DNA of 21,204 bases from a virus. Lineage: Duplodnaviria; Heunggongvirae; Uroviricota; Caudoviricetes. The notes under the pieces were generated by a model. That model did not search any database. It was not told the DNA's origin and worked only from the letters and a program-made list of their open reading frames with translations. Below, in pieces: positions 3,327-20,904 of the stretch. The stretch is from the IMG/VR virus record IMGVR_UViG_2703718841_000002. One strand, written 5' to 3'. The position numbers and the translations under genes were made by a program. Numbering within the stretch: position 1 is the stretch's first letter; each line of letters begins with the position of its first letter.

Positions 3327-3358
3327 GGGCAAGAGGGTGTTCTTGCCCTTTGTTTATT
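3327..3358. terminator. Candidate intrinsic terminator hairpin between A and the SIR2-like gene
   Basis: GGGCAAGA / TCTTGCCC 8-bp inverted repeat with 6-nt loop, followed by TTTGTTTATTT on the plus strand; overlaps the minus-strand stop codon. Confidence 0.45.
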
Positions 3359-5952
3359 TAAGCGGCGATTTCAATGTTGCTTTTATATTTTAAGAGGGCG
3401 TTTTTGGGAACTGCTGGCCAGGCTGAGTATCTATAATAGTTCATATAATCTTTCTCTATCAGTGTTTTTAGCTGTTTGTTAGCTTGAACTTCATCGCCAA
3501 GTAAAAAGAATGCACACATGGCCGTAGCCCCTTTTGAATTGTTATGTGCTAAAACTGAATTTATCTCATTCTTTTTAATGTCTTGCCCTTCTTTTTTCTT
3601 GGCAACTTCTCTATTGATTATTAAAACATCTTTTTCCCTGTAATCTTTAATTTTTTCAAGGTTTTCATTAGCGATTTTAATTGTTTCTTTATAGTTTCCT
3701 GCAAGAAGATTGGTATAAGATTTTCCTAAGATATAATCACTAAACCCGTAACCTTTTTCATAAGCTTCATCAAGAAGAACTATCGCTTTATCATAATCGC
3801 CGTTTAAAGATGCAATATCAGATTTTAATTTTAAAATGGTGATTTCTGATTTGTTTCTTGGCAGGCTATCAATAAACTCCTCTGCCAATTTGATGTTGTT
3901 TTTATCAATTAGTAATATGTCTACAATACTGTTTGTATGATTATTTTTCCACGGGCAGTTCATGGCTTCTTTGACTAATTCAATACCAGCTTTGATGTCC
4001 CTGTTGCAGCCTATCTCATATCGAGCTTTAAATATAATGAAAGGAGCAATTCTTGCAATGTCGCTCTCTTCTTCATATTTATCAATAAAGCCTTTCATCA
4101 GGTTGGGAGTGTTTTCATCGAAGTCTGTTTCAAATAAAGATAGATGCAGTTGTGTTAAATATTTTAATATGTTTCTTTTTTTATTTTTTGATGATGTTTT
4201 GTAAGCGTTGGATAATGTATCTATGCATAATAATGTATCTTCTTTCTTTTGCAATGCGCAGGTGAAATCAGTATATAACGACAAATATGTATCGTGAGTA
4301 GGGTTGACCTCTTTTATTTTGTCAAGCAGTTCTTGTATTAATTTATTACAATCTTTCTTATCATGGCTTGATTGATGTTTTGTCTTTATTGCGTCATATT
4401 TTATTCTCCATGCAATATTATCCAGATCACTGCTTTGGAGTAAGCTTTTATCAATTAAATCATGTATTTCATCAAAGGTTATTAATTCTTCATCATTATT
4501 TTCTAGATGTAGAATAGCAATTCTGCTTAAATGATTCTTAAGATTTATGCTATATGGGAATTTTTCAAGCAATCCCTTAAGGTAATGTATTTTTGCCTTT
4601 AGATCTGTGAATATGTTTGCCCTTGAAAGGGCGTAATTTATATTAAATTCATCAAGAGCTATAAGATTATCACTAATTTCTAATGCTGACTTTGTGTCTT
4701 TTTGTTCTTCTTTTATTTCAATTAGCCTACGCAGATATTTAGACTTTATATTGTCACTATCAGCGTTATTGATTAATTCATTCAGTTTTGACTCTGCGTT
4801 TAAATAATTTTTATTTCTAATGAGGTTGTCAATGTATAACAAATTCTTAAAATCTTCTTCGGGGATCTTTTGATCGTCTAAATCACTTTGGGATAGCTCG
4901 TTTATTAATGACGATATGTCATGTGTTAGAGTGTGTTTTTTTAATTTTGAGAGGTCAGATTTGATAATGCCATTTTTAGATAAGTTGTACTCATCTGTTA
5001 TAAAGTTTTGGATCATCATCTCTCTTTTTGTGGATTTTTGATTCCCTCCAAAAGAGAGTGCGCAGCCTAATTCTAGGGCTAGTTCTGCCATCAATTCATC
5101 AAAACCTTCTATTTCTACCCAATAAACTTTATCTTGACCTAGAAGCCTAATAAGTTCTGGTGGGATGGAGTCATTTTTTCTAACGCACCAGTATACTCCA
5201 TTTCTTAGGTAATCGTCCTGTTTTAATAAATGTTTTAAAACATCCATGATAGAGCTGTCATTGCCAGCATAACCAACAAAAATAATCCCGTATTCTTTAG
5301 TGAATTCAGTTAGTTTTTCACGAGTGTTACCTTCTAATGACTCGGTTTCTTTTAAAGAGCTTTTTATGCTATCAAATAAATAATCACCATGTAATTTTAT
5401 TATTTTTGGCCTTGAAGAAGTAATTGAGACGCCTTTAATTGATGAATCATGTGCACATAATAATGGTCTGTCAGAAGAAAATTGATAAAATGCTTCATTT
5501 ATTAAATCGTCAAAATTTGTTGTGAAGACAGTATCAAAAAACTTTGATTCAAATAGTTCAACGAGATAAGCATATCCAATTGAAGGTAATTTTTTGTCTA
5601 CTTGAAGCTCAACAAATCTTCTGCGTTGAGATGGAAGATCAAATTTCTTTTCAAAAAGAGATGAGTATTCATTGTTTGGGTCGTACCAGACTGGATGGTT
5701 TTTGGATAGCCATTTTTTAGCTTCTTCGGCATCGACATATTCTTGATTAGATAGTCTTGTGTATATCTCTTCTCTCCATTTCGCTACTAACTCTTGACCA
5801 GTTTTTATTCCAGATGTAACGGATGCGCCAGCACCAAGAAAAAGTGAATAGTTAGGTGATGTACCTGATTTGATTTTTATATAATCAGCTAAATCTTTAA
5901 CGGTTCTTTTTTTGGCAACCAGTTGTTCCTTGGTAGTATCACGATCAGACAT
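3358..5952 (-). CDS. SIR2-like NADase domain protein with C-terminal helical-repeat (TPR-like) domain; candidate anti-phage defence protein
   Basis: 864-aa ORF; N-terminal LFLGAGASVTSG, TTNFDDLINEAF (Asn146), IIKLHGDYLF (His188, codon at 5389-5391 checked); GGAGGG RBS 4 nt upstream of ATG; very AT-rich against GC-rich flanks; no Walker A motif. Confidence 0.7.
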   Translation of the reverse strand: MSDRDTTKEQLVAKKRTVKDLADYIKIKSGTSPNYSLFLGAGASVTSGIKTGQELVAKWREEIYTRLSNQEYVDAEEAKKWLSKNHPVWYDPNNEYSSLFEKKFDLPSQRRRFVELQVDKKLPSIGYAYLVELFESKFFDTVFTTNFDDLINEAFYQFSSDRPLLCAHDSSIKGVSITSSRPKIIKLHGDYLFDSIKSSLKETESLEGNTREKLTEFTKEYGIIFVGYAGNDSSIMDVLKHLLKQDDYLRNGVYWCVRKNDSIPPELIRLLGQDKVYWVEIEGFDELMAELALELGCALSFGGNQKSTKREMMIQNFITDEYNLSKNGIIKSDLSKLKKHTLTHDISSLINELSQSDLDDQKIPEEDFKNLLYIDNLIRNKNYLNAESKLNELINNADSDNIKSKYLRRLIEIKEEQKDTKSALEISDNLIALDEFNINYALSRANIFTDLKAKIHYLKGLLEKFPYSINLKNHLSRIAILHLENNDEELITFDEIHDLIDKSLLQSSDLDNIAWRIKYDAIKTKHQSSHDKKDCNKLIQELLDKIKEVNPTHDTYLSLYTDFTCALQKKEDTLLCIDTLSNAYKTSSKNKKRNILKYLTQLHLSLFETDFDENTPNLMKGFIDKYEEESDIARIAPFIIFKARYEIGCNRDIKAGIELVKEAMNCPWKNNHTNSIVDILLIDKNNIKLAEEFIDSLPRNKSEITILKLKSDIASLNGDYDKAIVLLDEAYEKGYGFSDYILGKSYTNLLAGNYKETIKIANENLEKIKDYREKDVLIINREVAKKKEGQDIKKNEINSVLAHNNSKGATAMCAFFLLGDEVQANKQLKTLIEKDYMNYYRYSAWPAVPKNALLKYKSNIEIAA

Positions 5953-6452: not shown

Positions 6453-7487
6453 TCAGCCGTTGTCAGTGTCCAGTGAGTAGTTTTTAAAGCGGATGACCTC
6501 CTGACCGAGCCAGCCGTTTATCTCGCGGATCCTGTCCTGTAACGGGATAAGCTCATTGCGGACAAAGACCTTTGCCACTTTCTCAATATCACCCAGCGAC
6601 CCGACGTTCTCCGGCTTGCCGCCCATCAACTGAAAGGGGATGCGGTGCGCGTCCAGCAGGTCTGCGGCACTGGCTTTTTTGATATTAAAAAAATCGTCCT
6701 TCGTCGCCACTTCACTGAGCGGGATAATTTTAATGCCGTCGGCTTTCCCTTGTGGGGCATAGAGAAACAGATTTTTAAAGTTGTTGCGGCCTTTCGACTT
6801 CACCATGTTTTCGCGAAGCATTTCGATATCGTTGCGATCCTGCACGGCATCGGTGACGTACATGATGTATCCGGCATGTGCGCCGTTTTCGTAATACTTG
6901 CGGCGGAACAGCGTGGCCGATTCATTCAGCCAGGCAGAGTTAAGGGCGCTGAGATATTCCGGCAGGCCGTACAGCTCCTGATTAATATCCGGCTCCAGCA
7001 GGTGAAACACGGAGCCGGGTGCGAAGGCTGTCGGCTCGTTGAAGGACGGCACCCACCAGTAAACATCCTCTTCCACGCCACGGCGGGTATATTTTGCCGG
7101 TGAGGTTTCCAGTCTGATGACCTTACCGGTGGTGCTGTAACGCTTTTCCAGAAACGCATTACCGAACACCAGAAAATCCAGCACAAAGCGGCTGAAATCC
7201 TGCTGGGAAAGCCACGGATGCGGGATAAATGTCGAGGCCAGAATATTGCGTTTGACGTAAATCGGGGAGCTGTGATGCACGGCAGCACGCAGGCTTTTTG
7301 CCAGACCGGTAAAGCTGACCGGTGGCTCATACCATCTGCCGTTACTGATGCACTCAACGTAATCCAGAATGTCACGGCGGTCGAGTACCGGCACCGGCTC
7401 GCCAAAGGTGAATGCTTCCATTTTCGGGGCGCTGGCGGTCATTGTTTTTGCCGCAGGTCGCGGTGTTTTCCCTTTTTTCTTGCTCAT
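6453..7487 (-). CDS. Q: Portal protein gpQ
   Basis: 344-aa ORF MSKKKGKTPRPAAKTM...; length and position match P2 Q; start overlaps the stop of P. Confidence 0.9.
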   Translation of the reverse strand: MSKKKGKTPRPAAKTMTASAPKMEAFTFGEPVPVLDRRDILDYVECISNGRWYEPPVSFTGLAKSLRAAVHHSSPIYVKRNILASTFIPHPWLSQQDFSRFVLDFLVFGNAFLEKRYSTTGKVIRLETSPAKYTRRGVEEDVYWWVPSFNEPTAFAPGSVFHLLEPDINQELYGLPEYLSALNSAWLNESATLFRRKYYENGAHAGYIMYVTDAVQDRNDIEMLRENMVKSKGRNNFKNLFLYAPQGKADGIKIIPLSEVATKDDFFNIKKASAADLLDAHRIPFQLMGGKPENVGSLGDIEKVAKVFVRNELIPLQDRIREINGWLGQEVIRFKNYSLDTDNG

Positions 7488-8098
7488 CAGTAAAACTCCA
7501 GAATGGTGGATGTCAGCGGGGTGCTGATACCGGCGGTGAGTGGCTCATTTAACAGGGCGTGCATGGTCGCCCAGGCGAGGTCGGCGTGGCTGGCTTCCTC
7601 GCTGCGGCTGGCCTCATAGGTGGCACTGCGTCCGCTGCTGGTCATGGTCTTGCGGATAGCCATAAACGAGCTGGTGATGTCGGTGGCGCTGACGTCATAT
7701 TCCAGACAGCCACGGCGGATAACGTCTTTTGCCTTGAGCACCATTGCGGTTTTCATTTCCGGCGTGTAGCGGATATCGCGCGCGGCGGGATAGAACGAGC
7801 GCACGAGCTGGAACACGCCGACACCGAGGCCGGTGGCATCAATCCCGATGTATTCAACGTTATATTTTTCGGTGAGTTTGCGGATGGATTCCGCCTGGGT
7901 GGCAAAGTCCATGCCTTTCCACTGGTGACGCTCAAGTATTCTGAATTTGCCACCGGCCACCACCGGCGGTGCCAGCACCACGCATCCGGCGCTGTCGCCA
8001 CGGTGTGACGGGTCGTAACCAATCCATACCGGGCGGGAGCCGAACGGATTGGCGGCAAACGGCGCATAGTCTTCCCATTCTTCCAGCGTGTCGACCAT
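7487..8098 (-). pseudogene. P: Terminase large subunit gpP, truncated: only the C-terminal nuclease-domain 203 codons remain
   Basis: ORF begins MVDTLEEWEDYAPF...VWIGYDPSHRGD; P2 P is ~590 aa; sequence upstream of 8098 is the capsid gene on the other strand. Confidence 0.7.
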
Positions 8099-8104
8099 GC
8101 AGCG

Positions 8105-9139
8105 TTGCAGCTCCTCGAACTGAACGGCATCGACGCCGGTGATGTGTCGAAAAAATTCACCGTTGAACCGTCGGTCACCCAGACCCTGATGAACACCATG
8201 CAGGAGTCCTCTGATTTTCTGACCCGCATCAACATTGTGCCGGTCAGCGAAATGAAAGGGGAAAAAATTGGTATTGGTGTCACCGGCTCCATCGCCAGCA
8301 CCACCGACACCGCCGGTGGCACCGAGCGTCAGCCGAAGGACTTCTCGAAGCTGGCGTCAAACAAGTACGAATGCGACCAGATTAACTTCGATTTTTATAT
8401 CCGCTACAAAACGCTTGACCTGTGGGCGCGTTATCAGGATTTCCAGCTCCGTATCCGTAACGCCATTATCAAACGCCAGTCCCTTGATTTCATCATGGCC
8501 GGTTTTAACGGCGTGAAGCGTGCCGAAACCTCTGACCGCAGCAGCAATCCGATGCTGCAGGATGTGGCGGTCGGCTGGCTGCAGAAATACCGCAATGAAG
8601 CCCCGGCGCGCGTGATGAGCAAGGTTACTGACGAGGAAGGTCACACCACCTCTGAGGTCATCCGCGTGGGTAAGGGCGGTGATTATGCCAGCCTCGATGC
8701 ACTGGTGATGGATGCGACCAACAACCTGATTGAGCCGTGGTATCAGGAAGACCCTGACCTTGTGGTGATTGTGGGGCGTCAGCTACTGGCGGACAAGTAT
8801 TTCCCCATCGTCAACAGGGAGCAGGACAACAGCGAAATGCTGGCCGCTGACGTCATCATCAGCCAGAAACGCATCGGTAACCTGCCGGCGGTACGCGTCC
8901 CGTACTTCCCGGCGGATGCGATGCTCATCACGAAGCTGGAAAACCTGTCCATCTACTACATGGATGACAGCCATCGCCGCGTGATTGAGGAAAACCCGAA
9001 ACTCGACCGCGTGGAGAACTACGAGTCAATGAACATTGATTACGTGGTGGAAGACTACGCCGCCGGTTGTCTGGTGGAAAAAATTAAGGTCGGTGATTTC
9101 TCCACACCGGCTAAAGCGACCGCAGAGTCGGGAGCGTAA
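8105..9139 (+). CDS. N: Major capsid protein gpN, 5'-truncated (native start and ~15 N-terminal codons missing; track start is a TTG)
   Basis: 344-aa ORF ...LELNGIDAGDVSKKFTVEPSVTQTLMNTMQESSDFLTR... recognised as P2 N; begins within a few nt of the truncated P. Confidence 0.8.
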   Translation: MQLLELNGIDAGDVSKKFTVEPSVTQTLMNTMQESSDFLTRINIVPVSEMKGEKIGIGVTGSIASTTDTAGGTERQPKDFSKLASNKYECDQINFDFYIRYKTLDLWARYQDFQLRIRNAIIKRQSLDFIMAGFNGVKRAETSDRSSNPMLQDVAVGWLQKYRNEAPARVMSKVTDEEGHTTSEVIRVGKGGDYASLDALVMDATNNLIEPWYQEDPDLVVIVGRQLLADKYFPIVNREQDNSEMLAADVIISQKRIGNLPAVRVPYFPADAMLITKLENLSIYYMDDSHRRVIEENPKLDRVENYESMNIDYVVEDYAAGCLVEKIKVGDFSTPAKATAESGA

Positions 9140-9886: not shown

Positions 9887-9985
9887 CAACCGAATGCGCC
9901 CCGCGCCAGGGCGGCACGCCGGTCAGTGAGGGTGAATCACCTGACACTGCACCGGCGTCCACCGCCCGACTTTTCAGAGGTAGTC

Positions 9986-10495
9986 ATGATGACGCTGATT
10001 ATTCCGCGAAAGGAGGCTCCCGTGTCCGGTGAGGGTACGGTGGTCATCCCGCAACCGGCAGGCGACGAGCCGGTGATTAAAAACACGTTCTTTTTTCCCG
10101 ATATCGACCCGAAGCGCGTCCGGGAACGTATGCGCCTTGAGCAGACCGTCGCCCCCGCCCGTCTGCGTGAGGCTATCAAGTCAGGCATGGCGGAGACAAA
10201 TGCGGAGCTGTACGAGTATCGCGAACAGAAAATTGCCGCCGGTTTTACGCGTCTGGCGGACGTCCCGGCGGACGACATCGACGGTGAAAGCATCAAAGTT
10301 TTTTACTACGAGCGCGCCGTGTGTGCGATGGCGACCGCGTCGCTTTATGAGCGTTATCGCGGCGTGGATGCCAGTGCGAAAGGCGACAAGAAGGCTGACA
10401 GCATTGACAGCACCATTGATGAGCTGTGGCGGGATATGCGCTGGGCGGTGGCGCGCATCCAGGGCAAGCCGCGCTGCATCGTGAGTCAAATCTGA
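9986..10495 (+). CDS. L: Head completion/stabilisation protein gpL
   Basis: ORF 9926..10495; preferred start at internal MMTLIIPRKEAP (9986), giving 169 aa. Confidence 0.8.
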   Translation: MMTLIIPRKEAPVSGEGTVVIPQPAGDEPVIKNTFFFPDIDPKRVRERMRLEQTVAPARLREAIKSGMAETNAELYEYREQKIAAGFTRLADVPADDIDGESIKVFYYERAVCAMATASLYERYRGVDASAKGDKKADSIDSTIDELWRDMRWAVARIQGKPRCIVSQI

Positions 10496-10698
10496 TGAAG
10501 ACCTTTGCGCTACAGGGCGACACGCTCGACGCCATTTGTGTCCGGTATTACGGGCGCACTGAGGGCGTGGTTGAGACCGTGCTTGCCGCAAATCCGGGGC
10601 TGGCTGAACTGGGGGCGGTGCTGCCACATGGCACCGCCGTCGAACTGCCCGACGTTCAGACCGCGCCCGTGGCTGAAACTGTCAATCTGTGGGAGTAA
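10495..10698 (+). CDS. X: Tail protein gpX
   Basis: 67-aa MKTFALQGDTLDAICVRYYG...; start overlaps the L stop (TGATG). Confidence 0.75.
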   Translation: MKTFALQGDTLDAICVRYYGRTEGVVETVLAANPGLAELGAVLPHGTAVELPDVQTAPVAETVNLWE

Positions 10699-10701
10699 CG
10701 C

Positions 10702-10983
10702 ATGACAGCAGAAGAAAAAAGCGTCCTGTCGCTTTTCATGATTGGAGTGCTGATTGTTGTCGGCAAGGTGCTTGCCGGTGGTGAACCCATCACCCCGCGT
10801 CTGTTTATCGGGCGCATGTTGCTCGGTGGTTTTGTCTCGATGGTTGCCGGTGTTGTTCTGGTGCAGTTTCCTGACCTGTCACTGCCTGCGGTGTGCGGTA
10901 TCGGCTCCATGCTGGGTATCGCCGGTTATCAGGTGATTGAGATTGCCATTCAGCGCCGCTTTAAGGGCAGGGGGAAACCGTAA
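10702..10983 (+). CDS. Y: Holin gpY
   Basis: 93-aa protein with hydrophobic transmembrane segments and basic C-terminus, first gene of the lysis cassette. Confidence 0.8.
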   Translation: MTAEEKSVLSLFMIGVLIVVGKVLAGGEPITPRLFIGRMLLGGFVSMVAGVVLVQFPDLSLPAVCGIGSMLGIAGYQVIEIAIQRRFKGRGKP

Positions 10984-11480
10984 TGCCGGTAATTAACACG
11001 CATCAGAATATCGCGGCCTTTCTCGACATGCTGGCAGTGTCCGAAGGGACGGCGAATCATCCGCTGACGAAAAACCGGGGCTATGACGTGATAGTCACCG
11101 GACTGGACGGGAAGCCGGAAATTTTCACCGACTACAGTGACCACCCGTTCGCGCATGGCCGACCGGCGAAGGTGTTTAACTGTCGCGGTGAAAAATCCAC
11201 GGCCTCCGGTCGCTATCAGCAGCTTTACCTGTTCTGGCCGCACTACCGCAAACAGCTTGCCCTGCCGGATTTCAGTCCGTTGTCACAGGACAGACTCGCC
11301 ATTCAGTTGATCCGCGAACGCGGTGCGCTGGATGACATCCGGGCGGGACGCATTGAGCGCGCCATTTCACGCTGTCGCAATATCTGGGCGTCCCTGCCGG
11401 GTGCCGGTTACGGTCAGCGTGAGCATTCACTGGAAAAACTGGTCACCGTCTGGCGTACCGCTGGCGGCGTACCGGCTTAA
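10983..11480 (+). CDS. K: Endolysin gpK (lysozyme-like)
   Basis: 165-aa soluble protein after the holin; P2 K-like. Confidence 0.8.
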   Translation: MPVINTHQNIAAFLDMLAVSEGTANHPLTKNRGYDVIVTGLDGKPEIFTDYSDHPFAHGRPAKVFNCRGEKSTASGRYQQLYLFWPHYRKQLALPDFSPLSQDRLAIQLIRERGALDDIRAGRIERAISRCRNIWASLPGAGYGQREHSLEKLVTVWRTAGGVPA

Positions 11481-11494
11481 ACGGAGTAAACACC

Positions 11495-11920
11495 ATGAAG
11501 AAATTATCCCTTTCACTGATGCTGAACGTGTCGCTGGCGCTGATGCTGGCACTGTCCCTGATTTACCCGCAGAGCGTGGCCGTCAGTTTTGTCGCCACCT
11601 GGGCGATTCTGGCGACGGTTATCTGTGTGGTTGCCGGTGGTGTCGGCGTGTATGCCACTGAGTATGTGCTGGAACGCTACGGGCGTGAGCTGCCGCCTGA
11701 ATCGCTGGCCGTGAAGATTGTCACGTCGCTGTTTTTGCAGCCGGTGCCGTGGCGCAGACGGGCGGCGGCTCTGGTGGTGATGGTGGCGACGTTTATCTCG
11801 CTGGTCGCTGCCGGGTGGATTTTTACCGCGCTGATTTACCTCGTGGCGTCGGTGTTCTTCCGGCTGATACGTACGGCCTGTCGTCAGCGTTTTGAGGGGC
11901 GGGAACCATGTCAAAGCTGA
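11495..11920 (+). CDS. lysA: Lysis-timing membrane protein LysA
   Basis: 141 aa with about four hydrophobic helices, after the endolysin. Confidence 0.7.
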   Translation: MKKLSLSLMLNVSLALMLALSLIYPQSVAVSFVATWAILATVICVVAGGVGVYATEYVLERYGRELPPESLAVKIVTSLFLQPVPWRRRAAALVVMVATFISLVAAGWIFTALIYLVASVFFRLIRTACRQRFEGREPCQS

Positions 11921-12333
11921 TGATTGTGATGGTTGTGTTGTTATCGCTGGCGGTGGCGGGGCTGTTTCTGGCGAAGCATGAAAACGCCAGCCTGCGCGCC
12001 TCGCTGGACAGGGTGAACAGCGTCGCCAGTGAACAGCAGACGACCATCACCATGCTGAAAAATCAGCTTCATGTTGCCCTCACCAGGGCAGACAAAAACG
12101 AGCTGGCGCAGGTGGCACTGCGTCAGGCGCTGGAGAACGCCGCGAAGCGTGAAGCACTGCGCGAGAAAACCATCACGAGGTTACTTAATGAAAACGAGGA
12201 TTTTCGCCGCTGGTATGGCGCTGACCTGCCTGATGCTGTGCGCCGGTTGCACCAGCGTCCGGCCTGCACCGACGCCAGTGATTGTCCACAACGCCTGCCC
12301 GAAAGTGAGCCTTTGCCCGATGCCGGGCAGTGA
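11908..12333 (+). CDS. lysB: i-spanin LysB (Rz-like)
   Basis: 141 aa, N-terminal transmembrane helix then charged coiled-coil-like region. Confidence 0.7.
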   Translation: MSKLMIVMVVLLSLAVAGLFLAKHENASLRASLDRVNSVASEQQTTITMLKNQLHVALTRADKNELAQVALRQALENAAKREALREKTITRLLNENEDFRRWYGADLPDAVRRLHQRPACTDASDCPQRLPESEPLPDAGQ

Positions 12334-12478
12334 CCCGCAGAAGAACGGCGATTTAAGTGCTGATATCCGGCAGCTTGAGAACGCGCTGGCACGCTGTGCC
12401 AGCCAGGTAAAAATGATTAAACACTGTCAGGACGAAAACGATGCTCAAACCCGACAGCCTGCGCAGGGCGCTGACTGA
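12188..12478 (+). CDS. lysC: o-spanin lipoprotein LysC (Rz1-like), partly embedded in lysB in another frame
   Basis: Internal ATG of ORF 12071..12478 gives MKTRIFAAGMALTCLMLCAGC... with an LCAGC lipobox; 96 aa. Confidence 0.65.
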   Translation: MKTRIFAAGMALTCLMLCAGCTSVRPAPTPVIVHNACPKVSLCPMPGSDPQKNGDLSADIRQLENALARCASQVKMIKHCQDENDAQTRQPAQGAD

Positions 12479-12908
12479 TGCCGTCACGGTGCTGAAAACT
12501 AACCCCGATATGCTGCGGATATTCGTGGATAACGGGAGTATTGCCTCCACGCTAGCGGAGTCGTTGTCATTCGAAAAGCGTTACACGCTCAATGTCATTG
12601 TGACCGACTTTACCGGTGATTTTGACCTGCTCATCGTGCCGGTGCTGGCGTGGCTGCGGGAAAATCAGCCCGACATCATGACCACCGACGAAGGCCAGAA
12701 AAAGGGCTTCACGTTTTATGCAGACATCAACAATGACAGCAGCTTTGATATCAGCATCAGCCTGATGCTGACCGAGCGCACGCTGGTCAGTGAGGTGGAC
12801 GGCGCACTGCATGTGAAGAATATCCCGGAACCCACGCCGCCGGAGCCGGTCACCCGCCCGATGGAGCTTTATATCAATGGTGAACTGGTGAGCAAGTGGG
12901 ATGAATGA
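12441..12908 (+). CDS. R: Tail completion protein gpR
   Basis: 155-aa ORF MLKPDSLRRALTDAVTVLKTNPDML...; P2 R-like. Confidence 0.85.
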   Translation: MLKPDSLRRALTDAVTVLKTNPDMLRIFVDNGSIASTLAESLSFEKRYTLNVIVTDFTGDFDLLIVPVLAWLRENQPDIMTTDEGQKKGFTFYADINNDSSFDISISLMLTERTLVSEVDGALHVKNIPEPTPPEPVTRPMELYINGELVSKWDE

Positions 12909-13359
12909 GTTTAAGCGTTTTGAAGACCGGCTGACCGGACTGATTGAGTCGCTGTCACCGTCAGGGCGTCGGCGACTGGCGGTAGATATTGCGAAGAAGC
13001 TGCGCCAGCGCCAGCAGCAGCGAATTAAATTACAAAAAGCCCCGGATGGTACGCCGTATGTACCGAGAAAAAACCAACCAGTACGAAATAAGAAAGGCCG
13101 GATAAAGCGGGAAATGTTTGTGAAATTACGCACTAACCGGTTTATGAAAGCAACAGGTAGCGAGAGTGCGGCGGTGGTGGCGTTTGCCAGCGGAGTACAA
13201 CGAATTGCGCGAGTACATCAATTAGGGCTTAGGGATAAGCCGGGGCGTAATAGTGCTGTGGTGGAATATCCTGTTCGTGAGTTATTTGGTTTTGACAAGG
13301 AATCTATACAATTGATAGAAAGGGAGTTATTAGTGATTCTATCGAAAGATGTTATATGA
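12901..13359 (+). CDS. S: Tail completion protein gpS (3' end is AT-rich, possibly a chimeric C-terminus)
   Basis: 152-aa ORF MNEFKRFEDRLTGLIESLSPSGRRRL...; composition turns AT-rich from about 13200. Confidence 0.8.
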   Translation: MNEFKRFEDRLTGLIESLSPSGRRRLAVDIAKKLRQRQQQRIKLQKAPDGTPYVPRKNQPVRNKKGRIKREMFVKLRTNRFMKATGSESAAVVAFASGVQRIARVHQLGLRDKPGRNSAVVEYPVRELFGFDKESIQLIERELLVILSKDVI

Positions 13360-14111
13360 GACGGGTGTTTGTGGATAAAAAGTTTTCCATTTTGAGAAAA
13401 AGAGTAAAGCATTCTCAAAAGAAAGTTATGGATTGTATTATTGCTGACCATAATGCTGATATATGTGTGTTATGCGGGAGTTCTGACGATATTACTCGTG
13501 AGCACATTATTCCTCAGTGGGCCTTTGAGTCAAATGCTGAAAAATCTTTAATTAATAAAAAGAATAATCAGTCAACTCATTACATTAAAGCCACTGTACC
13601 AGCATGCAGAGTGTGCAATTCTGATTTGCTGGGAGTGTTTGAGTATAACCTGAAGAAATTTCTTACGGAAAAGAGAGGGGAGGAGTTAACAGATTATGAG
13701 TATGATTGCATCATATGGTGGTTGCAATACATGGGTTTTAAGTTGCAATTAATGGATTTGCGGAACCGCTTTCTCAGGTATAAAGGTGGTGATTATATCC
13801 CGTTTCTTGCAAACTTCCCGGTTGCAATGTTTTGGGGGAATGTCGATACGACGCCGGGGGATGTCTTCAGGATTATACGAAAATCGCGACGCAATCTGAT
13901 GTCGAAATGGAAGGATAAAAAACATAATTCTTTGATGGTTTTTGAAACATCAAACAAGAGTTTTCATTTCTTTCATAAGGTTGATGAATTTATTTTTATT
14001 GAAATTCCTCAGGTTAAGAAGGCGTTTTTCTTCTTTTTTAATAAAGAATTTGACAGCCATGATTTAGCTCATGAGGAGTGTATGAAGATTATAGAGAAGT
14101 GCTACAACTAA
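13356..14111 (+). CDS. HNH-motif endonuclease-like protein; candidate accessory/defence gene at the S-V moron site
   Basis: 251-aa AT-rich ORF with CVLCGSSDDITREHIIPQW and a second CRVCN pair; start overlaps the S stop. Confidence 0.6.
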   Translation: MRRVFVDKKFSILRKRVKHSQKKVMDCIIADHNADICVLCGSSDDITREHIIPQWAFESNAEKSLINKKNNQSTHYIKATVPACRVCNSDLLGVFEYNLKKFLTEKRGEELTDYEYDCIIWWLQYMGFKLQLMDLRNRFLRYKGGDYIPFLANFPVAMFWGNVDTTPGDVFRIIRKSRRNLMSKWKDKKHNSLMVFETSNKSFHFFHKVDEFIFIEIPQVKKAFFFFFNKEFDSHDLAHEECMKIIEKCYN

Positions 14112-14188
14112 TATTTGTTATGTTGTGTCACAGCTGACAGAACCCTCCATGATTGCTGCTGGTATCGTCCAGCGGCATCCTTCCCGTT
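14112..14188 (+). promoter_or_regulatory. Possible Ogr-dependent late promoter upstream of V (imperfect TGT-N11/13-ACA dyad)
   Basis: TGTTATGTTGTGTCACAGCTGACA in the intergenic region ahead of V; spacing does not match the TGT-N12-ACA consensus exactly. Confidence 0.25.
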
Positions 14189-14824
14189 ATGAACACTCTC
14201 GCAAATATTCAGGAACTCGCGCGCGCACTGCGCAATATGATTCGCACCGGCGTTATCGTCGAAACCGACCTTAACGCCGGTCGCTGCCGTGTGCAGACCG
14301 GCGGCATGTGCACCGACTGGCTTCAGTGGTTGACCCATCGTGCCGGGCGTTCGCGTACATGGTGGGCACCTTCCGTGGGGGAACAGGTGCTGATTCTGGC
14401 CGTGGGCGGTGAACTTGACACGGCGTTTGTTCTGCCGGGGATTTATTCCGGTGATAACCCCGCGCCGTCTGCGTCGGCGGATGCCCTGCATATCCGTTTC
14501 CCTGACGGGGCGGTGATTGAGTATGAACCCGAAACCAGTGCACTCATGGTAAGCGGAATTAAAACGGCCAGCGTGACGGCTTCTGATTCTGTTACTGCCA
14601 CGGTGCCGGTGGTCATGGTGAAAGCATCAACCCGCATCACCATGGACGCACCGGAGGTGGTCTGCACCAACAGGCTGATTACCGACACGCTGGAAGTGCA
14701 GAAGGGCGGGACGATGCGCGGCAACATTGAACACACCGGCGGTGAACTCTCATCAAACGGTAAGGTACTGCATACCCATAAACACCCCGGCGACAGCGGC
14801 GGCACAACCGGGAGTCCTCTATGA
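14189..14824 (+). CDS. V: Baseplate spike/assembly protein gpV
   Basis: ORF 14153..14824; preferred start MNTLANIQELARALRNM at 14189 (211 aa). Confidence 0.85.
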   Translation: MNTLANIQELARALRNMIRTGVIVETDLNAGRCRVQTGGMCTDWLQWLTHRAGRSRTWWAPSVGEQVLILAVGGELDTAFVLPGIYSGDNPAPSASADALHIRFPDGAVIEYEPETSALMVSGIKTASVTASDSVTATVPVVMVKASTRITMDAPEVVCTNRLITDTLEVQKGGTMRGNIEHTGGELSSNGKVLHTHKHPGDSGGTTGSPL

Positions 14825-15168
14825 CAGCGCGTTATCTCGGAATGAATCGCAGTGATGGCCTGACTGTCACTGACCTTGAGCATATCAGCCAGAGTATCGG
14901 CGATATCCTGCGCACACCGGTCGGCTCACGGGTGATGCGTCGTGATTACGGCTCGTTGCTGGCGTCAATGATTGACCAGCCGCAGACCCCGGCGCTTGAG
15001 TTGCAGATTAAGGTCGCCTGTTACATGGCCGTGCTGAAATGGGAACCCCGCGTCACCCTGTCATCCGTCACCACGGCGCGCAGTTTTGACGGGCGAATGA
15101 CGGTCACGTTAACCGGCCAGCACAACGACACCGGCCAGCCACTTTCGTTAACCATCCCTGTGAGTTGA
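14821..15168 (+). CDS. W: Baseplate wedge protein gpW
   Basis: 115-aa ORF overlapping the V stop; P2 W-like. Confidence 0.85.
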   Translation: MTARYLGMNRSDGLTVTDLEHISQSIGDILRTPVGSRVMRRDYGSLLASMIDQPQTPALELQIKVACYMAVLKWEPRVTLSSVTTARSFDGRMTVTLTGQHNDTGQPLSLTIPVS

Positions 15169-15172
15169 AACC

Positions 15173-16081
15173 ATGCCGATTATCGACCTGAACCAGCTAC
15201 CCGCACCGGATGTGGTCGAGGAGCTGGACTTTGAAACCATTCTTGCCGAACGCAAGGCGACACTGATTTCCCTTTACCCGGAAGACCAGCAGGAGGCGGT
15301 CGCCCGTACCCTGACGCTGGAATCTGAGCCTCTCGTCAAACTGCTGGAGGAAAATGCTTATCGTGAGCTTATCTGGCGTCAGCGTGTGAATGAGGCTGCA
15401 CGGGCGGTGATGCTGGCCTGTGCCGCCGGTAATGACCTTGATGTGATTGGTGCCAATTACAACACCACACGCCTGATTATCACCCCGGCAGATGATTCGA
15501 CCCTCCCGCCGACACCGGCCGTGATGGAATCTGACACCGATTATCGTCTGCGTATTCAGCAGGCGTTTGAAGGTTTAAGCGTCGCCGGGTCGGTGGGGGC
15601 CTATCAGTATCATGGTCGAAGTGCCGACGGGCGTGTCGCAGATATCTCTGTCACCAGTCCTTCTCCGGCCTGCGTCACCATCTCTGTGCTGTCACGTGAA
15701 AATAACGGTGTGGCATCCGAAGACCTGCTGGCGGTGGTGCGCAACGCCCTTAATGGTGAGGACGTCAGACCGGTGGCCGACCGTGTGACCGTGCAGTCTG
15801 CCGTCATCGTTGAATACCAGATAAATGCCACGCTTTACCTTTACCCTGGCCCCGAAAGCGAACCCATTCGCGCTGCCGCCGTGAAAAAACTGGAAGCGTA
15901 TATCACGGCACAGCACCGGCTGGGGCGCGACATCCGACTGTCTGCCATTTATGCCGCTTTGCATGTGGAAGGCGTGCAGCGTGTCGAACTGGCTGCACCG
16001 CTGGCCGACATCGTGCTCAACAATACGCAGGCGTCTTTCTGTACCGAATACAGCGTCGTGACAGGAGGCTCGGATGAGTGA
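15173..16081 (+). CDS. J: Baseplate assembly protein gpJ
   Basis: 302-aa ORF in conserved V-W-J-I order. Confidence 0.85.
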   Translation: MPIIDLNQLPAPDVVEELDFETILAERKATLISLYPEDQQEAVARTLTLESEPLVKLLEENAYRELIWRQRVNEAARAVMLACAAGNDLDVIGANYNTTRLIITPADDSTLPPTPAVMESDTDYRLRIQQAFEGLSVAGSVGAYQYHGRSADGRVADISVTSPSPACVTISVLSRENNGVASEDLLAVVRNALNGEDVRPVADRVTVQSAVIVEYQINATLYLYPGPESEPIRAAAVKKLEAYITAQHRLGRDIRLSAIYAALHVEGVQRVELAAPLADIVLNNTQASFCTEYSVVTGGSDE

Positions 16082-16685
16082 TTCGCGACTGCTGCCGACC
16101 GGCTCATCACCGCTTGAAGTCGCTGCCGCAAAAGCCTGTGCGGAAATTGAAAAAACGCCGGTCAGTATTCGTGAGCTGTGGAACCCGGACACCTGCCCGG
16201 CAAATCTGCTGCCGTGGCTGGCGTGGTCATTTTCGGTTGACCGCTGGGATGATAAGTGGCCGGAAGCGACAAAACGCGCTGTTATCCGCGATGCGTATTT
16301 CATTCACTGCCATAAGGGCACTATAGGCGCAATCCGGCGTGTGGTGGAGCCGCTCGGCTATCTGATTGAGGTGAGGGAGTGGTGGCAGCTCAACGAGGAG
16401 CCGGGGACGTTCCGCATCGTTGTTGGCGTGCTTGAGCAGGGTATTACCGAGGAAATGTATCAGGAGCTGGAGCGCCTCGTTGCTGATGCAAAACCGGCAA
16501 GCCGCCATCTGACGGGACTGGCTATCAGTTTAAGTACAACCGGCAACATTTTTGCCGGTGCGGGATGCTATCACGGTGACGCCCTGACGGTTTATCCCTA
16601 CACCCCGGAGGCCATTATTGTCGGAGGGGATTATTTCCCGGCCTCGGCCATTCATTTAATTGATAACCTGAGAGTAAACGCATGA
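16074..16685 (+). CDS. I: Baseplate/tail protein gpI
   Basis: 203-aa ORF MSDSRLLPTGSSPLEVAAAKACAEIEK...; overlaps the J stop. Confidence 0.8.
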   Translation: MSDSRLLPTGSSPLEVAAAKACAEIEKTPVSIRELWNPDTCPANLLPWLAWSFSVDRWDDKWPEATKRAVIRDAYFIHCHKGTIGAIRRVVEPLGYLIEVREWWQLNEEPGTFRIVVGVLEQGITEEMYQELERLVADAKPASRHLTGLAISLSTTGNIFAGAGCYHGDALTVYPYTPEAIIVGGDYFPASAIHLIDNLRVNA

Positions 16686-17989
16686 CAGTGAAATACTACG
16701 CCATTCTGACTAATCAGGGCGCAGCACGGCTGGCTAACGCGACGATGCTCGGCAGTAAGCTGAATCTGACGCAAATGGCCGTTGGTGATGCGAATGGTGT
16801 CTTGCCGACACCAGACCCGGCACAGACAAAACTGATTAATCAGAAACGCATCGCGCCGCTGAATCTTCTGAGTGTTGACCCGAACAACCAGAGCCAGATT
16901 ATTGCGGAGCAAATCATCCCTGAGAACGAGGGCGGATTCTGGATCCGTGAGATTGGGCTTTATGATGATGAAGGCGTACTCATTGCGGTGGCGAACTGCC
17001 CGGAAACGTACAAACCGCAGTTGCAGGAAGGCAGTGGTCGTACCCAGACTATCCGCATGATTCTGGTTGTCACGAATACCGAAGCTATTACGCTGAAAAT
17101 CGACCCGTCGGTGGTACTGGCGACCCGTAAATACGTGGATGATAAAGTCCTGGAATTAAAGCTGTATGTGGATGACCAGATGAGAAACCACATTGCCGCA
17201 CAAGATCCTCATACCCAGTATGCGCAGAAACATAATCCGACATTTACCGGAGAACCAAAAGCGCCGACGCCTGCAGCAGGAAATAACACCACGCGGATTG
17301 CGACCACTGAGTTTGTTCAGGCCGCTATTACTGCTCTGATTAACGGTGCGCCAGCCACGCTGGACACACTGAAAGAAATTGCCGCAGCCATTAACAATGA
17401 CCCGAAATTCAGTACCACCATTAACAATGCGCTGTCAGGTAAGCAGCCACTGGATGAGACGCTGACTCATTTGAGTGGAAAGGATGTTGCCGGTCTTCTC
17501 GCATACCTTGGTTTGGGAGAAGGCTCTGCATTACCTGTTGGTGTCCCTGTTCCGTGGCCTTCAGCCACTCCGCCAACAGGCTGGCTGAAATGCAACGGAG
17601 CAGCTTTTTCTGCTGAAGAATACCCGGAACTGGCAAAGGCTTACCCGACAAATAAATTGCCAGATTTACGTGGTGAGTTTATTCGTGGCTGGGATGACGG
17701 GCGTGGTATTGATGCTGGACGTGCTTTATTGAGCCTTCAGGCTGGGATGCTGGAAAAACACCGCCATATTGTTGTTGCCAATGATGGTTACGACACAAAA
17801 GATGAATGGGAACTGGCTACGATTTTCAAAAAAACATACACACAAGGACGGGGACTTGATGCCACAAATACAGGAGGGAGTCTGATCCCATCACCGACAC
17901 TTCATTCACGAGGGAGTATCGGTAATACTGGCGGGAGTGAGACCCGTCCACGAAATATTGCATTTAACTTTATCGTAAGGGCTGCATAA
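16682..17989 (+). CDS. H: Tail fibre protein gpH with a tail-collar-like C-terminal receptor-binding module
   Basis: 435 aa; conserved N-terminal fibre anchor (GGFWIREIGLYDDEGVLIAVANCPETYKP) and C-terminal PVPWP...GW..CNG..........YP.L motif region; shorter than P2 H (~669 aa). Confidence 0.8.
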   Translation: MTVKYYAILTNQGAARLANATMLGSKLNLTQMAVGDANGVLPTPDPAQTKLINQKRIAPLNLLSVDPNNQSQIIAEQIIPENEGGFWIREIGLYDDEGVLIAVANCPETYKPQLQEGSGRTQTIRMILVVTNTEAITLKIDPSVVLATRKYVDDKVLELKLYVDDQMRNHIAAQDPHTQYAQKHNPTFTGEPKAPTPAAGNNTTRIATTEFVQAAITALINGAPATLDTLKEIAAAINNDPKFSTTINNALSGKQPLDETLTHLSGKDVAGLLAYLGLGEGSALPVGVPVPWPSATPPTGWLKCNGAAFSAEEYPELAKAYPTNKLPDLRGEFIRGWDDGRGIDAGRALLSLQAGMLEKHRHIVVANDGYDTKDEWELATIFKKTYTQGRGLDATNTGGSLIPSPTLHSRGSIGNTGGSETRPRNIAFNFIVRAA

Positions 17990-18597
17990 TGGATAACGCA
18001 GTATTAAATAGCGAGTTTATTGCCACGAAGGCGGGGAATATTACCGTCTATAACTACGATGGTGAAACTCGGGAATATATTTCTGCATCAACTGAATATC
18101 TTGCAGTGGGTGTCGGTATTCCAGCATATTCCTGTTTAGACGCTCCTGGTACATATAAGGCTGGTTATACAATTTGCCGTTCTGTAGATTTAAATTCATG
18201 GGAATATGTGCCAGACCATCGCGGTGAAATCGTCTATAACACCGAGACGGGAGATGCCAAAGAAATCACAGCACCGGGTGATTACCCCGAAAATACAACC
18301 ACTATCGCCCCATTAACGCCATACGATAAATGGGATGGTGAGAAATGGGTGACCGATACTGAGGCACAGCATAGCGCCGCAGTAGACGCGGCAGAAGCAC
18401 AGCGTCAGTCACTGATTGATACTGCAATGGCTTCCATTAGTCTGATTCAGCTGAAATTACAGGCCGGACGGAATCTGACGCAGTCAGAAACCAGCCGACT
18501 TAACACGGTGTTGGATTACATTGACGCGGTGACGGCAACAGATACCAGCACCGCGCCGGATGTTATCTGGCCTGAACTGCCGGAGACTGCGCAATAA
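17989..18597 (+). CDS. G: Tail fibre assembly chaperone gpG
   Basis: 202-aa ORF directly after H, ends ...VIWPELPETAQ. Confidence 0.75.
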   Translation: MDNAVLNSEFIATKAGNITVYNYDGETREYISASTEYLAVGVGIPAYSCLDAPGTYKAGYTICRSVDLNSWEYVPDHRGEIVYNTETGDAKEITAPGDYPENTTTIAPLTPYDKWDGEKWVTDTEAQHSAAVDAAEAQRQSLIDTAMASISLIQLKLQAGRNLTQSETSRLNTVLDYIDAVTATDTSTAPDVIWPELPETAQ

Positions 18598-18733
18598 ACT
18601 CACCATCAATATATAAATCCCCCTGCTGTGTGTCAGCAGGGCATTCTTTCCATATTAATGATGGATGGAATCTTCCTTCAGGATTAATTTCCGTTATCTC
18701 TTCTACTTTATTTTCTTCAATTCTTGCCCACAT
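18563..18733 (-). CDS. Small hypothetical ORF (56 aa), AT-rich, convergent with G
   Basis: Internal ATG of track ORF 18563..18991 gives MWARIEENKVEEITEINPEGRFHPSLIWKECPADTQQGDLYIDGEFIAQSPAVQAR; the upstream part of that track ORF is an alternate frame of the Gly-rich ORF. Confidence 0.3.
   Translation of the reverse strand: MWARIEENKVEEITEINPEGRFHPSLIWKECPADTQQGDLYIDGEFIAQSPAVQAR
18621..18641 (+). terminator. Hairpin after G (CCCTGCTG-tgtgt-CAGCAGGG), weak terminator candidate
   Basis: Perfect 8-bp inverted repeat just after the G stop, followed by moderately T-rich sequence; also lies inside a possible minus-strand small ORF. Confidence 0.3.
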
Positions 18734-18740
18734 ATGAACC

Positions 18741-19157
18741 TCACCAGTAAATATAAACTGCGCCATCTGCTCCGGCACCCGACTGACCCGTTGATGAATT
18801 AGGACATAATCCAGCTCCGCCACCTCCAGGCCCAACTGCTGATACCGCTTTTCCGTTAGCTGTATCTCTGAATGAACCTGCTCCTCCGGGGCCACCACCA
18901 GAACCACCATTACCAGCTCCCGATGCGGCAGAAGCAATGGAACCTGGAGAACCTGGCCCAAGCGATGTATTAATTGTTCCCCCGACACCAACTGCTCCTA
19001 ACCCTCCGGAAGGCTGGCCTCCGCTATAGCCTCCGGAAGCTGACATGTAAGTCCCGAAACTGCTCGAGCCACCATTTTTACCGTTTACAGAAATACCAGA
19101 CACAGGCGCACCACCGGTACTGGAAAAACTCGGTGTTATCAACAAAGAGTCAGACAC
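18741..19157 (-). CDS. Glycine-rich ORF fragment (138 aa), possible remnant of G-FI cargo or of a fibre/adhesin-like gene
   Basis: Minus-strand ORF with repeated GGxGG/SGxG tracts (...GNGGSGGGPGGAGS...GPGGGGAG...); the plus-strand frames here look non-coding. Confidence 0.4.
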   Translation of the reverse strand: MSDSLLITPSFSSTGGAPVSGISVNGKNGGSSSFGTYMSASGGYSGGQPSGGLGAVGVGGTINTSLGPGSPGSIASAASGAGNGGSGGGPGGAGSFRDTANGKAVSAVGPGGGGAGLCPNSSTGQSGAGADGAVYIYW

Positions 19158-19164
19158 ACTTGAC

Positions 19165-19434
19165 CAGACCGCCGCCAGAACTCAAGCCGCCACGTATGGC
19201 CGCGGTGGTTATATTCCGGCGACCAGCTCTTATGCAGGCTATCAGGCTTATCAGCCGGTCACGGTACCGGCTGGTCGCTCTTATGTGGACCAGAGTAAAA
19301 ACGAATATCACATCAGTCTGACGGGCGGTACTGCGCCGGGGACACAGCTTGACCGCCAGTTACAGGATGCACTCGAAAAATACGAGCGGGATAAACGTGC
19401 GCGCGCCCGTGCCAGCATGATGCATGACGGTTAA
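19165..19434 (+). pseudogene. T: 3' remnant (~88 codons) of tape-measure gene T; the rest of T and genes FI, FII, E are absent
   Basis: Frame reads ...TYGRGGYIPATSSYAGYQAYQPVTVPAGRSYVDQSKNEYHISLTGGTAPGTQLDRQLQDALEKYERDKRARARASMMHDG* ending just before the U RBS (AAGGAGG); coordinates approximate (+/- 2 nt). Confidence 0.55.
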
Positions 19435-19928: not shown

Positions 19929-20904
19929 TGCTGGATGCGCTGACATTTGATGCAGGCAGTACGCTGACGCCGGATTACATGCTGATGCTCGACAGCAGGG
20001 ATATTACCGGCAATATCAGCGACCGTCTGATGAGTATGACCCTGACGGATAACCGGGGCTTTGAGGCTGACCAGCTTGATATTGAACTGAACGATGCCGA
20101 CGGGCAGGTCGGGCTGCCGGTTCGTGGCGCTGTCCTGACGGTGTATATCGGCTGGAAAGGTTTTGCTCTGGTATGCAAAGGGAAATTTACCGTTGATGAG
20201 GTTGAACACCGGGGCGCGCCGGATGTGGTCACCATCCGCGCCCGGAGTGCAGATTTCCGCGGGACGCTCAATTCCCGCCGTGAAGGTTCATGGCATGACA
20301 CCACGCTCGGTGCGATTGTTGAGGCGATAGCCTCCCGTAACAGGCTGGAAGCCAGAGTCGCTCCGTCACTGGCCGGAATTAAAATCCCACACATCGACCA
20401 GTCGCAGGAGTCCGACGCGAAATTCCTGACCCGTCNNNNNNNNNNNNNNNNNNNNNNNNNNNNNNNNNNNNNNNNNNNNNNNNNNNNNNNNNNNNNNNNN
20501 NNNNNNNNNNNNNNNNNNNNNNNNNNNNNNNNNNNNNNNNNNNNNNNNNNNNNNNNNNNNNNNNNNNNNNNNNNNNNNNNNNNNNNNNNNNNNNNNNNNN
20601 NNNNNNNNNNNNNNNNNNNNNNNNNNNNNNNNNNNNNNNNNNNNNNNNNNNNNNNNNNNNNNNNNNNNNNNNNNNNNNNNNNNNNNNNNNNNNNNNNNNN
20701 NNNNNNNNNNNNNNNNNNNNNNNNNNNNNNNNNNTTTACACGGAAACACCGGTCAAAGTGTCTGGCTTTAAGCGCGTCATAGACGAGCAGGACTGGACAA
20801 TCACTAAGGTGACACACTTTCTGAATAATTCCGGCTTCACGACGTCCTTAGAGCTTGAGGTCAGGCTTTCTGATGTGGAGTACGAAACAGAAGATGATGA
20901 GTGA
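19928..20904 (+). CDS. D: Tail protein gpD (late-control gene D), interrupted by an assembly gap
   Basis: N-terminal MLDALTFDAGSTLTPDYMLMLDSRDITGN...; after the N run the frame resumes ...VKVSGFKRVIDEQDWTITKVTHFLNNSGFTTSLELEVRLSDVEYETEDDE*; frames either side of the gap differ, so the gap length is not the true length. Confidence 0.75.
20436..20734. other. Assembly gap (run of 299 N)
   Basis: Uninterrupted N characters inside gene D. Confidence 0.99.

Follow-up and report, generated by a model that had tools for sequence, protein, structure and literature searches.

Probable silent half of an invertible tail-fibre switch, cut by a deletion in a decaying P2-like prophage

Invertible tail-fibre segments of the Din family are known from phage Mu (G segment; Sv-U / Sv'-U', Gin), phage P1 (C segment; Cin) and e14 (P segment; stfP-tfaP / stfE-tfaE, PinE). 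The locus described here resembles them in its layout: the constant N-terminus of the fibre lies outside the segment, two convergent cassettes of a tip and an accessory gene lie inside it, 26-bp sites flank it (one of them in the fibre gene), and the gene for a serine recombinase is adjacent. It differs in that the DNA analysed, a locked fossil, has lost 41% of the OFF cassette along with the second site and the invertase, and in that one of its cassettes encodes a glycine-rich tip with a 56-aa partner and not a Tfa protein of the Caudo_TAP family. Flipping in culture has been found for invertible fibre loci in E. coli prophages, both P2-like and e14 (PMC4272514). The P2-like fibre loci of EPEC E2348/69 from that study (Goldberg et al. 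2014) belong to the same prophage family and hold the same position between H and FI; however, inversion phase variation was demonstrated there in active loci, whereas the present copy is locked.

For the products of the silent cassette, the fibre and chaperone of cyanophage Pam3, gp24 and gp25 (PDB 7YPX; PMC9608196), offer a solved counterpart, in which the chaperone gene likewise lies immediately downstream of the fibre gene. In the Pam3 model, trimerisation is assigned to the C-terminal domain of the chaperone and deemed necessary for chaperone action (PMC9608196). The 56-aa protein has no such helical domain, its glycine-rich tip sits on the long P2 H shaft instead of the short helical stalk of Pam3, and sequence identity between the two systems is low (~20-24%). 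Pam3 gp24 in turn resembles S16 gp38 (PMC9608196), and a glycine-rich lattice architecture is common to T-even/S16 gp38, to ALK/LTK and to the tip considered here; gp38, however, is a separate protein capping gp37, while the domain considered here belongs covalently to the fibre as its C-terminus. The DUF4376 chaperones V22 gp27, from an Alteromonas phage and experimentally required for fibre function (PMC7289586), and A5 gp9 (PMC10579305) are related through the DUF4376 domain found on longer relatives of the 56-aa protein. In contrast to them, the 56-aa protein lacks DUF4376, and the heads of the V22 and A5 fibres are lectin-like, with no glycine-rich tip.

The DNA analysed, referred to below as the window, is a stretch of 21,204 nucleotides from a P2-like prophage with the order gpA, a SIR2_2 cargo gene, Q, a truncated P, N, M ... 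V, W, J, I, H, G/Tfa, two reverse ORFs, U, D and Ogr. We consider the region of the two reverse ORFs to be the silent OFF half of an invertible tail-fibre host-range switch, with a probability of about 0.9. A system of this kind is already known and would not surprise a phage specialist, and the window holds a fossil of it; the only mildly new element is the small family of the 56-aa protein, viewed as a gp25-type fibre-binding domain with strict pairing to Gly_rich_2 tips. The relevant features are as follows.

16682-17989, plus strand: tail fibre gene H, 435 aa (Pfam Phage_tail_fib and Collar)
17496-17521: crossover site of 26 bp inside H, TTCTCGCATACC TT GGTTTGGGAGAA, located by pattern search
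17505-19120: remnant of the invertible tail-fibre segment, 1616 bp, with ~265 bp missing at the right end
17989-18597, plus strand: G / Tfa, tail-fibre assembly protein of the ON cassette, 202 aa (Caudo_TAP, E 3.7e-32)
18563-18733, minus strand: small partner gene, intact, 56 aa, ATG start
18621-18641, terminator-like on both strands: perfect 8-bp hairpin, CCCTGCTG / CAGCAGGG, with a 5-nt loop
18741-19118, minus strand: 5'-truncated OFF cassette, the last 125 codons and stop of a ~213-codon Gly_rich_2 fibre tip
18741-19157, minus strand: nominal glycine-rich ORF around that cassette, 138 aa, GTG start
19116-19120: deletion junction, a 5-bp microhomology GGTAC common to the cassette and T (window compared with L003 and L004)
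19116-19434, plus strand: 3' remnant of the tape-measure gene T, ~105 codons
19449-19928: gene U, downstream of the T remnant

Several features of the earlier note, which had been made from the letters of the sequence alone, were present as described, namely both minus-strand ORFs, the Gly/Ser-rich character of the 138-aa ORF (Gly 29%, Ser 18%) and the AT-rich character of the 56-aa ORF (40.4% GC, compared with 50.6% across the whole window), which shares 35 nt with the 3' end of G (stop at 18597). The extent of the longer ORF was right in part: 18741-19118 belongs to a gene, while codons 1-13 (19157-19119, MSDSLLITPSFSS) are antisense of the T remnant and lie outside it.

Gene H is composite in the window. 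Its constant N-terminal part extends up to the crossover site and aligns to related prophages L003 and L026 outside the segment, and the collar-type C-terminal cassette joined to it (~17509-17989) aligns within the segment. H constant, the collar cassette and G are encoded on the plus strand, and the glycine-rich cassette and the 56-aa gene on the minus strand, so that a constant fibre N-terminus outside the segment is accompanied by two convergent C-terminal cassettes with accessory genes. The counterparts of G in relatives are annotated as tfaE or tail fiber assembly protein.

The segment itself (17505-19120) is 99.75% identical to positions 13345-14960 of L003, while the flanks are only 70-88% identical and lie in the opposite relative orientation. 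In this relative (strain 2018-11-3CC, NZ_AP021895; L002 and L003) the segment is reversed with respect to the constant region of H, the glycine-rich cassette continues the reading frame of H and so yields a 560-aa fibre (WP_172410956.1), and the collar cassette and Tfa adjoin the recombinase gene. Both orientations thus occur in nature, with the collar joined to H in the window, L025 and L026 and the glycine-rich cassette joined in L002/L003. One and the same invertible host-range module is therefore shared by two P2-like prophages with divergent flanks, and prophages with a Mu/e14-type baseplate (L001 and L024) carry it too. A recombinase gene lies next to the segment in L001 (pinE), L024 (unnamed), L002 and L026, and the recombinase carries Resolvase and HTH_7 domains. 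Two crossover sites are present in L002, and the right site of L026 lies at 8720-8745. A three-way comparison with the L002 sites places the exchange point at the central TT, where identity changes partner exactly.

A close relative is L026 (strain LF3-1, NZ_CM139230). Compared over ~6.7 kb (window 9904-13018 and 14152-17707), it shares ~97% identity with the window. In it, J, I, H and Tfa are followed by the reverse-strand pair of small ORF and glycine-rich cassette, and these by recombinase, FI, FII, E, E' and T, an arrangement that equals exactly the window plus the missing piece. Of 5426 complete E. coli genomes, 55 carry window positions 18600-19115 at >=99% identity, and 57 do so when matches of any detected identity are counted. 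When positions 18598-19115 were searched against 50,697 phage records by blastn at a distant setting, no match was obtained.

The window itself has neither an invertase nor a second site, so the switch is read from these relatives. A pattern search placed the 26-bp site at a single locus, 17496-17521, in the 21-kb window, and tblastn with the proteins of a relative detected no recombinase, sheath or tube homology in it. The window is thus the remnant of a Din-type switch and not a working member. The earlier proposal of an inverted alternate fibre or adhesin segment is right in all its parts: the same DNA proves to be half of an invertase-controlled fibre segment in intact relatives; the invertase gene adjoining the segment there has been lost from the window, and one of the two 26-bp sites known from L002 is left.

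In the intact element, a serine invertase of the Pin/Gin/Cin type would flip a segment of ~1.9 kb between two 26-bp sites, one within fibre gene H and the other beside the invertase gene. Flipping would join the constant N-terminus of H either to the collar-type tip with its Tfa chaperone (G) or to the glycine-rich tip with the small partner, and inversion would probably swap receptor specificity in intact relatives. The window shows the state in which collar/G is joined to H (ON) and the glycine-rich cassette is reversed (OFF); the latter lacks a promoter and a start codon, which is usual for an OFF half.

The switch was disabled together with much of the tail region. Cassette homology stops at 19120 and T homology begins at 19116, and an illegitimate deletion at the GGTAC microhomology cut off the 5' end of the OFF cassette; the FI-T deletion that the earlier note had supposed on this side is thereby placed at 19116-19120. 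Relative to L026, ~5.3 kb are missing, comprising ~265 bp of the cassette with the right crossover site, the recombinase gene, FI, FII, E, E' and ~2.1 kb of T. The OFF cassette has lost its first ~88 codons (41%) and retains 125 of ~213. Since only one site is left and the invertase is gone, the switch can no longer flip and is locked with collar/G ON. The junction was absent from the complete E. coli genomes searched, so the deletion looks private. In L025 (strain LR-45), a different and independent truncation of the OFF cassette runs into the recombinase gene. The T remnant is 97-98% identical to the 3' end of T in P2-like phages (megablast against phages). With FI, FII, E, E' and most of T missing, the prophage cannot build a tail. 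At least two deletions were recognised, the second in the head genes, and the element is dead, with neither tail genes nor invertase. Rfam returned no family over the whole window.

The small gene is intact in the window but stranded. A word-indexed protein search found only 6 near-identical proteins, suggesting an orphan, which was overturned by an exhaustive profile search with 363 matches at the family threshold of E <= 1e-3, nearly all of which align from their first residue. The consensus of the family reads MWARIENxxVxExTDxDPxGRFHPSLxWVECxxxVxxGxxYxDGxF. In Pfam the small ORF has no match at E <= 1, including Caudo_TAP (PF02413), it has no PHROGs match, and its family is covered by no Pfam or NCBIfam model. 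RefSeq gives the gene as 67 aa with a start at 18766. The start at 18733 is favoured over it because nearly all family members begin, in the alignment, at MWARIE; this sequence evidence supports a product of 56 aa, and a GAGG Shine-Dalgarno motif lies 7 nt upstream.

Most members of the family, at 100-215 aa, end in a DUF4376 or Tfa-like domain. Proteins of only 49-70 aa turn up repeatedly in many independent clusters at 50% identity, and those of four other enterobacterial genera (L008-L011) measure 54-57 aa. In 18 of the 19 loci examined, a gene for a glycine-rich fibre is located directly upstream of the small gene, at a spacing of ~0-16 nt or with a short overlap (7 nt in the window), and the C-terminal region of this partner contains 25-43% Gly. 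It ends in a motif of the G.DG.V.I.W type in most of these 18 loci, the window version being GADGAVYIYW. Such pairs were found in Enterobacterales, Pseudomonas, Halomonadaceae, a beta-proteobacterial genome and Desulfobacula.

When the family profile was compared with PDB sequences, it matched chain a of 7ypx, the "tail fiber chaperone" gp25 of Pam3, over residues 7-59, a beta-sandwich by which gp25 binds the tip from the side; the match is modest (E 0.0035, 24% identity). For the AF2 model of the small protein (pLDDT 89, five strands), Foldseek again returned 7ypx_a, as its one match across the PDB (TMq 0.75, rmsd 2.8 Å). Hence, on profile and model evidence, the 56-aa protein matches the fibre-binding N-terminal beta-sandwich of gp25-type chaperones, residues 1-55 in gp25, and is homologous to it. 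By analogy with Pam3 gp24-gp25, it would bind the side of the glycine-rich tip and assist or shield its folding. [quoted passage not shown]

Whether this minimal form works is decided differently by two readings. We tentatively suggest, with slightly less than even confidence, that the 56-aa protein represents a distinct minimal class of chaperone or cap, in which the fibre-binding beta-sandwich stands alone, has Gly_rich_2 tips as partners in several bacterial phyla and works without the trimerisation module. Current models treat the helical module as essential. The alternative, which we regard as unlikely, is that the ORF is a degenerate chaperone that has lost its trimerisation domain and is non-functional even in intact relatives. 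The longer forms with a DUF4376 or Tfa-like C-terminus, which make up most of the family, and the role given to that C-terminal domain in the Pam3 model (PMC9608196) are consistent with such a loss. However, the recurrence of short forms in independent clusters and in four other genera argues against it, as do the identity of the ORF in L026, the conservation of this DNA at >=99% in the 55 E. coli genomes, and the retention of a good Shine-Dalgarno motif and of tight coupling to the fibre stop codon. Trimerisation could, moreover, be supplied by the long shaft of P2 H.

The partner of this putative minimal chaperone is the glycine-rich tip. [quoted passage not shown] The full L002 cassette scores 34.2 bits against Gly_rich_2 (PF21722; gathering cut-off 24.3 bits), and PF21722 is carried by all homologues; the PHROGs match of the ORF is in the tail category. 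NCBIfam returned nothing for either ORF or for the full fibre, and phmmer of the 560-aa fibre against PDB sequences matched the shaft region only. An AF2 model was therefore considered for P0007, a full-length relative that is 99% identical to the full cassette and is not the truncated copy of the window. Its pLDDT exceeds 90 across the glycine-rich domain, and Foldseek against the PDB places the Pam3 fibre first (7ypx_A, E 1e-8; 7yfw_a), followed by Bxb1 tail-tip chains and then, more weakly, by the glycine-rich domains of ALK/LTK. S16 gp38 was absent among these matches.

The full-length relative thus has a tip with a predicted TNF-like and glycine-rich fold, and the two window genes match two chains of one solved fibre-chaperone complex (7ypx_A and 7ypx_a). 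In intact relatives the domain would serve as the receptor-binding tip, as suggested by the solved Pam3 gp24-gp25 complex. The option of a toxin translocation domain, which the earlier note had left beside that of a fibre adhesin, is ruled out by Gly_rich_2 membership and by the match to solved phage fibre tips.

Judged by the same model, the window copy is a pseudogene lacking the TNF-like core strands. It is very unlikely that the host still obtains a functional glycine-rich protein from the truncated 138-aa ORF by way of the GTG at 19157. The frame is open over 138 codons from that start, but its first 13 residues come from antisense T, its product is missing ~86 residues at the start of the domain, five core strands of the model among them, and the remnant alone reaches only 11.9 bits, below the Gly_rich_2 cut-off. 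A promoter for the OFF cassette was rejected, as no promoter-like site was seen upstream on the minus strand. We infer that nothing in 18563-19157 is expressed in the window.

Still less credible is the suggestion of the earlier note that the ORFs are remnants of non-morphogenetic cargo at the G-FI hotspot of P2. The position after G, which is the Z/fun slot of P2, and the AT-rich composition of the small ORF are compatible with it. However, both ORFs are fibre-tip and chaperone sequence: the DNA is nearly identical to an invertible fibre segment, the glycine-rich ORF is a tail-fibre C-terminus with a PHROGs match in the tail category, and its partner is a fibre-chaperone domain. What the slot after G holds is the invertible segment and, in relatives, a recombinase gene, with no fibre-unrelated gene.

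The reading of both ORFs as chance frames or as the antisense of a plus-strand gene, which has equally little credit, could draw on the antisense origin of codons 1-13, on the 6 matches of the word-indexed search and on the missing Pfam, NCBIfam and PHROG matches of the small ORF, but it is refuted for 18563-19118 by the 363 homologues that begin at the same Met, by a gene pair conserved from Enterobacterales to Desulfobacula, by confident AF2 models and by the lack of any annotated plus-strand gene across 18598-19115 in the relatives examined (L001, L002, L024 and L026). Since the glycine-rich ORF is the C-terminal part of an intact-prophage fibre and the small ORF belongs to a 363-member family, both are real coding sequence over 18563-19118.

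The odd pair of reverse-strand ORFs is thereby explained as a product of prophage decay, and its gene boundaries are corrected by removing 13 spurious N-terminal codons and setting the small-gene start at 18733. A functional label also becomes available for the RefSeq "hypothetical protein" WP_071556292.1 and for the unmodelled domain family that travels with glycine-rich tips, and this label should be useful in annotating receptor-binding modules and in engineering fibres or tailocins.

The perfect 8-bp hairpin that had been noticed inside the small ORF was located at 18621-18641, 24 nt past the stop of G and within codons 31-38 of the small ORF, between the convergent cassettes. The 81-nt stretch around it (18590-18670) has a folding z of -2.4, and the hairpin presumably acts as a terminator shared by the two cassettes.

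Over its whole length (17505-19120), the invertible tail-fibre segment is 99.75% identical to positions 13345-14960 of the P2-like prophage of E. coli 2018-11-3CC (L003), whereas the flanking genes of the two P2-like prophages are only 70-88% identical. The same segment was also found in two prophages with a Mu/e14-type baseplate (YmfQ, gp46/gp47; L001 and L024). The disparity between segment and flanks, together with this occurrence beside Mu/e14-type baseplate genes, points to a recent horizontal exchange of a complete host-range module.

Among the E. coli matches H89-H100, many prophages are 96-98% identical to the J-I-H-G genes of the window up to position 18585. After the equivalent of this position, they carry a second convergent Tfa of the Caudo_TAP type in place of the cassette formed by the 56-aa gene and the Gly-rich gene; thus, the OFF slot of the switch is itself modular. 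In LF3-1, the closest intact relative, the annotation marks H, which is linked there to the collar cassette (L026, 6010-7336), as frameshifted.

The 56-aa small gene appears in RefSeq, and in the output of other gene callers, with a length of 67 aa or 115 aa (WP_071556292.1, WP_010376608.1). These longer annotations, one of which spans 18563-18766, extend upstream into the Gly-rich gene in a different frame. Alignment of the family indicates that the true start is the methionine of MWARIE at 18733.

Two further states of the locus were observed in other genomes:

L027 (Yersinia phage vB_YpM_MLG42, PP599993), 3330-4138, reverse orientation: Gly-rich cassette between G and FI
L025 (E. coli LR-45, NZ_AP027532), 3964-4512: same locus, separately decayed

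The Gly-rich cassette of the Yersinia phage, a plaque-forming P2-like phage, is complete and has a crossover-like site, TTCTTTGAAAGGTTCAATTGGGAGAA; it is followed by a gene, missing from the annotation, that is homologous to the 56-aa gene (74% identity). The invertase gene is absent in this phage, which is viable and therefore carries the switch in a frozen state. In the LR-45 prophage, a recombinase gene truncated at its 5' end and a tail gene that is also truncated come directly after the small ORF and the initial ~210 nt of the match; J and part of I are missing as well. This decay of the fibre-switch locus is independent of that in the window.

Outside the fibre region, the window contains two possible cargo genes and an altered head-gene block:

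3358-5952, minus strand: 864-aa protein with a SIR2_2 domain, between gpA and portal gene Q
7487-9139: terminase gene P remnant and capsid gene N, with Pfam domains
13356-14111, plus strand: 251-aa ORF immediately upstream of baseplate gene V

The SIR2_2 protein resembles defence-type cargo of the P2 A/Q hotspot. The decayed P2-like prophage of LR-45 likewise has an annotated SIR2 family protein, which is encoded upstream of V and not in the A/Q slot. The 251-aa ORF had no match in a Pfam search. The slot upstream of V is possibly another cargo position, since in L002/L003 the same slot is occupied by a DUF6216 gene.

Terminase gene P is cut down to its C-terminal 203 codons, with Terminase_6C as the sole domain, and is directly adjoined by capsid gene N, which has a TTG start and a Pfam profile alignment beginning at position 8. 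Scaffold gene O and the N-terminus of P are missing from the window. This loss is a second internal deletion, and the prophage is therefore defective in head assembly in addition to tail assembly. Within gene D, 299 consecutive Ns (20436-20734) stand for masked or unassembled sequence.
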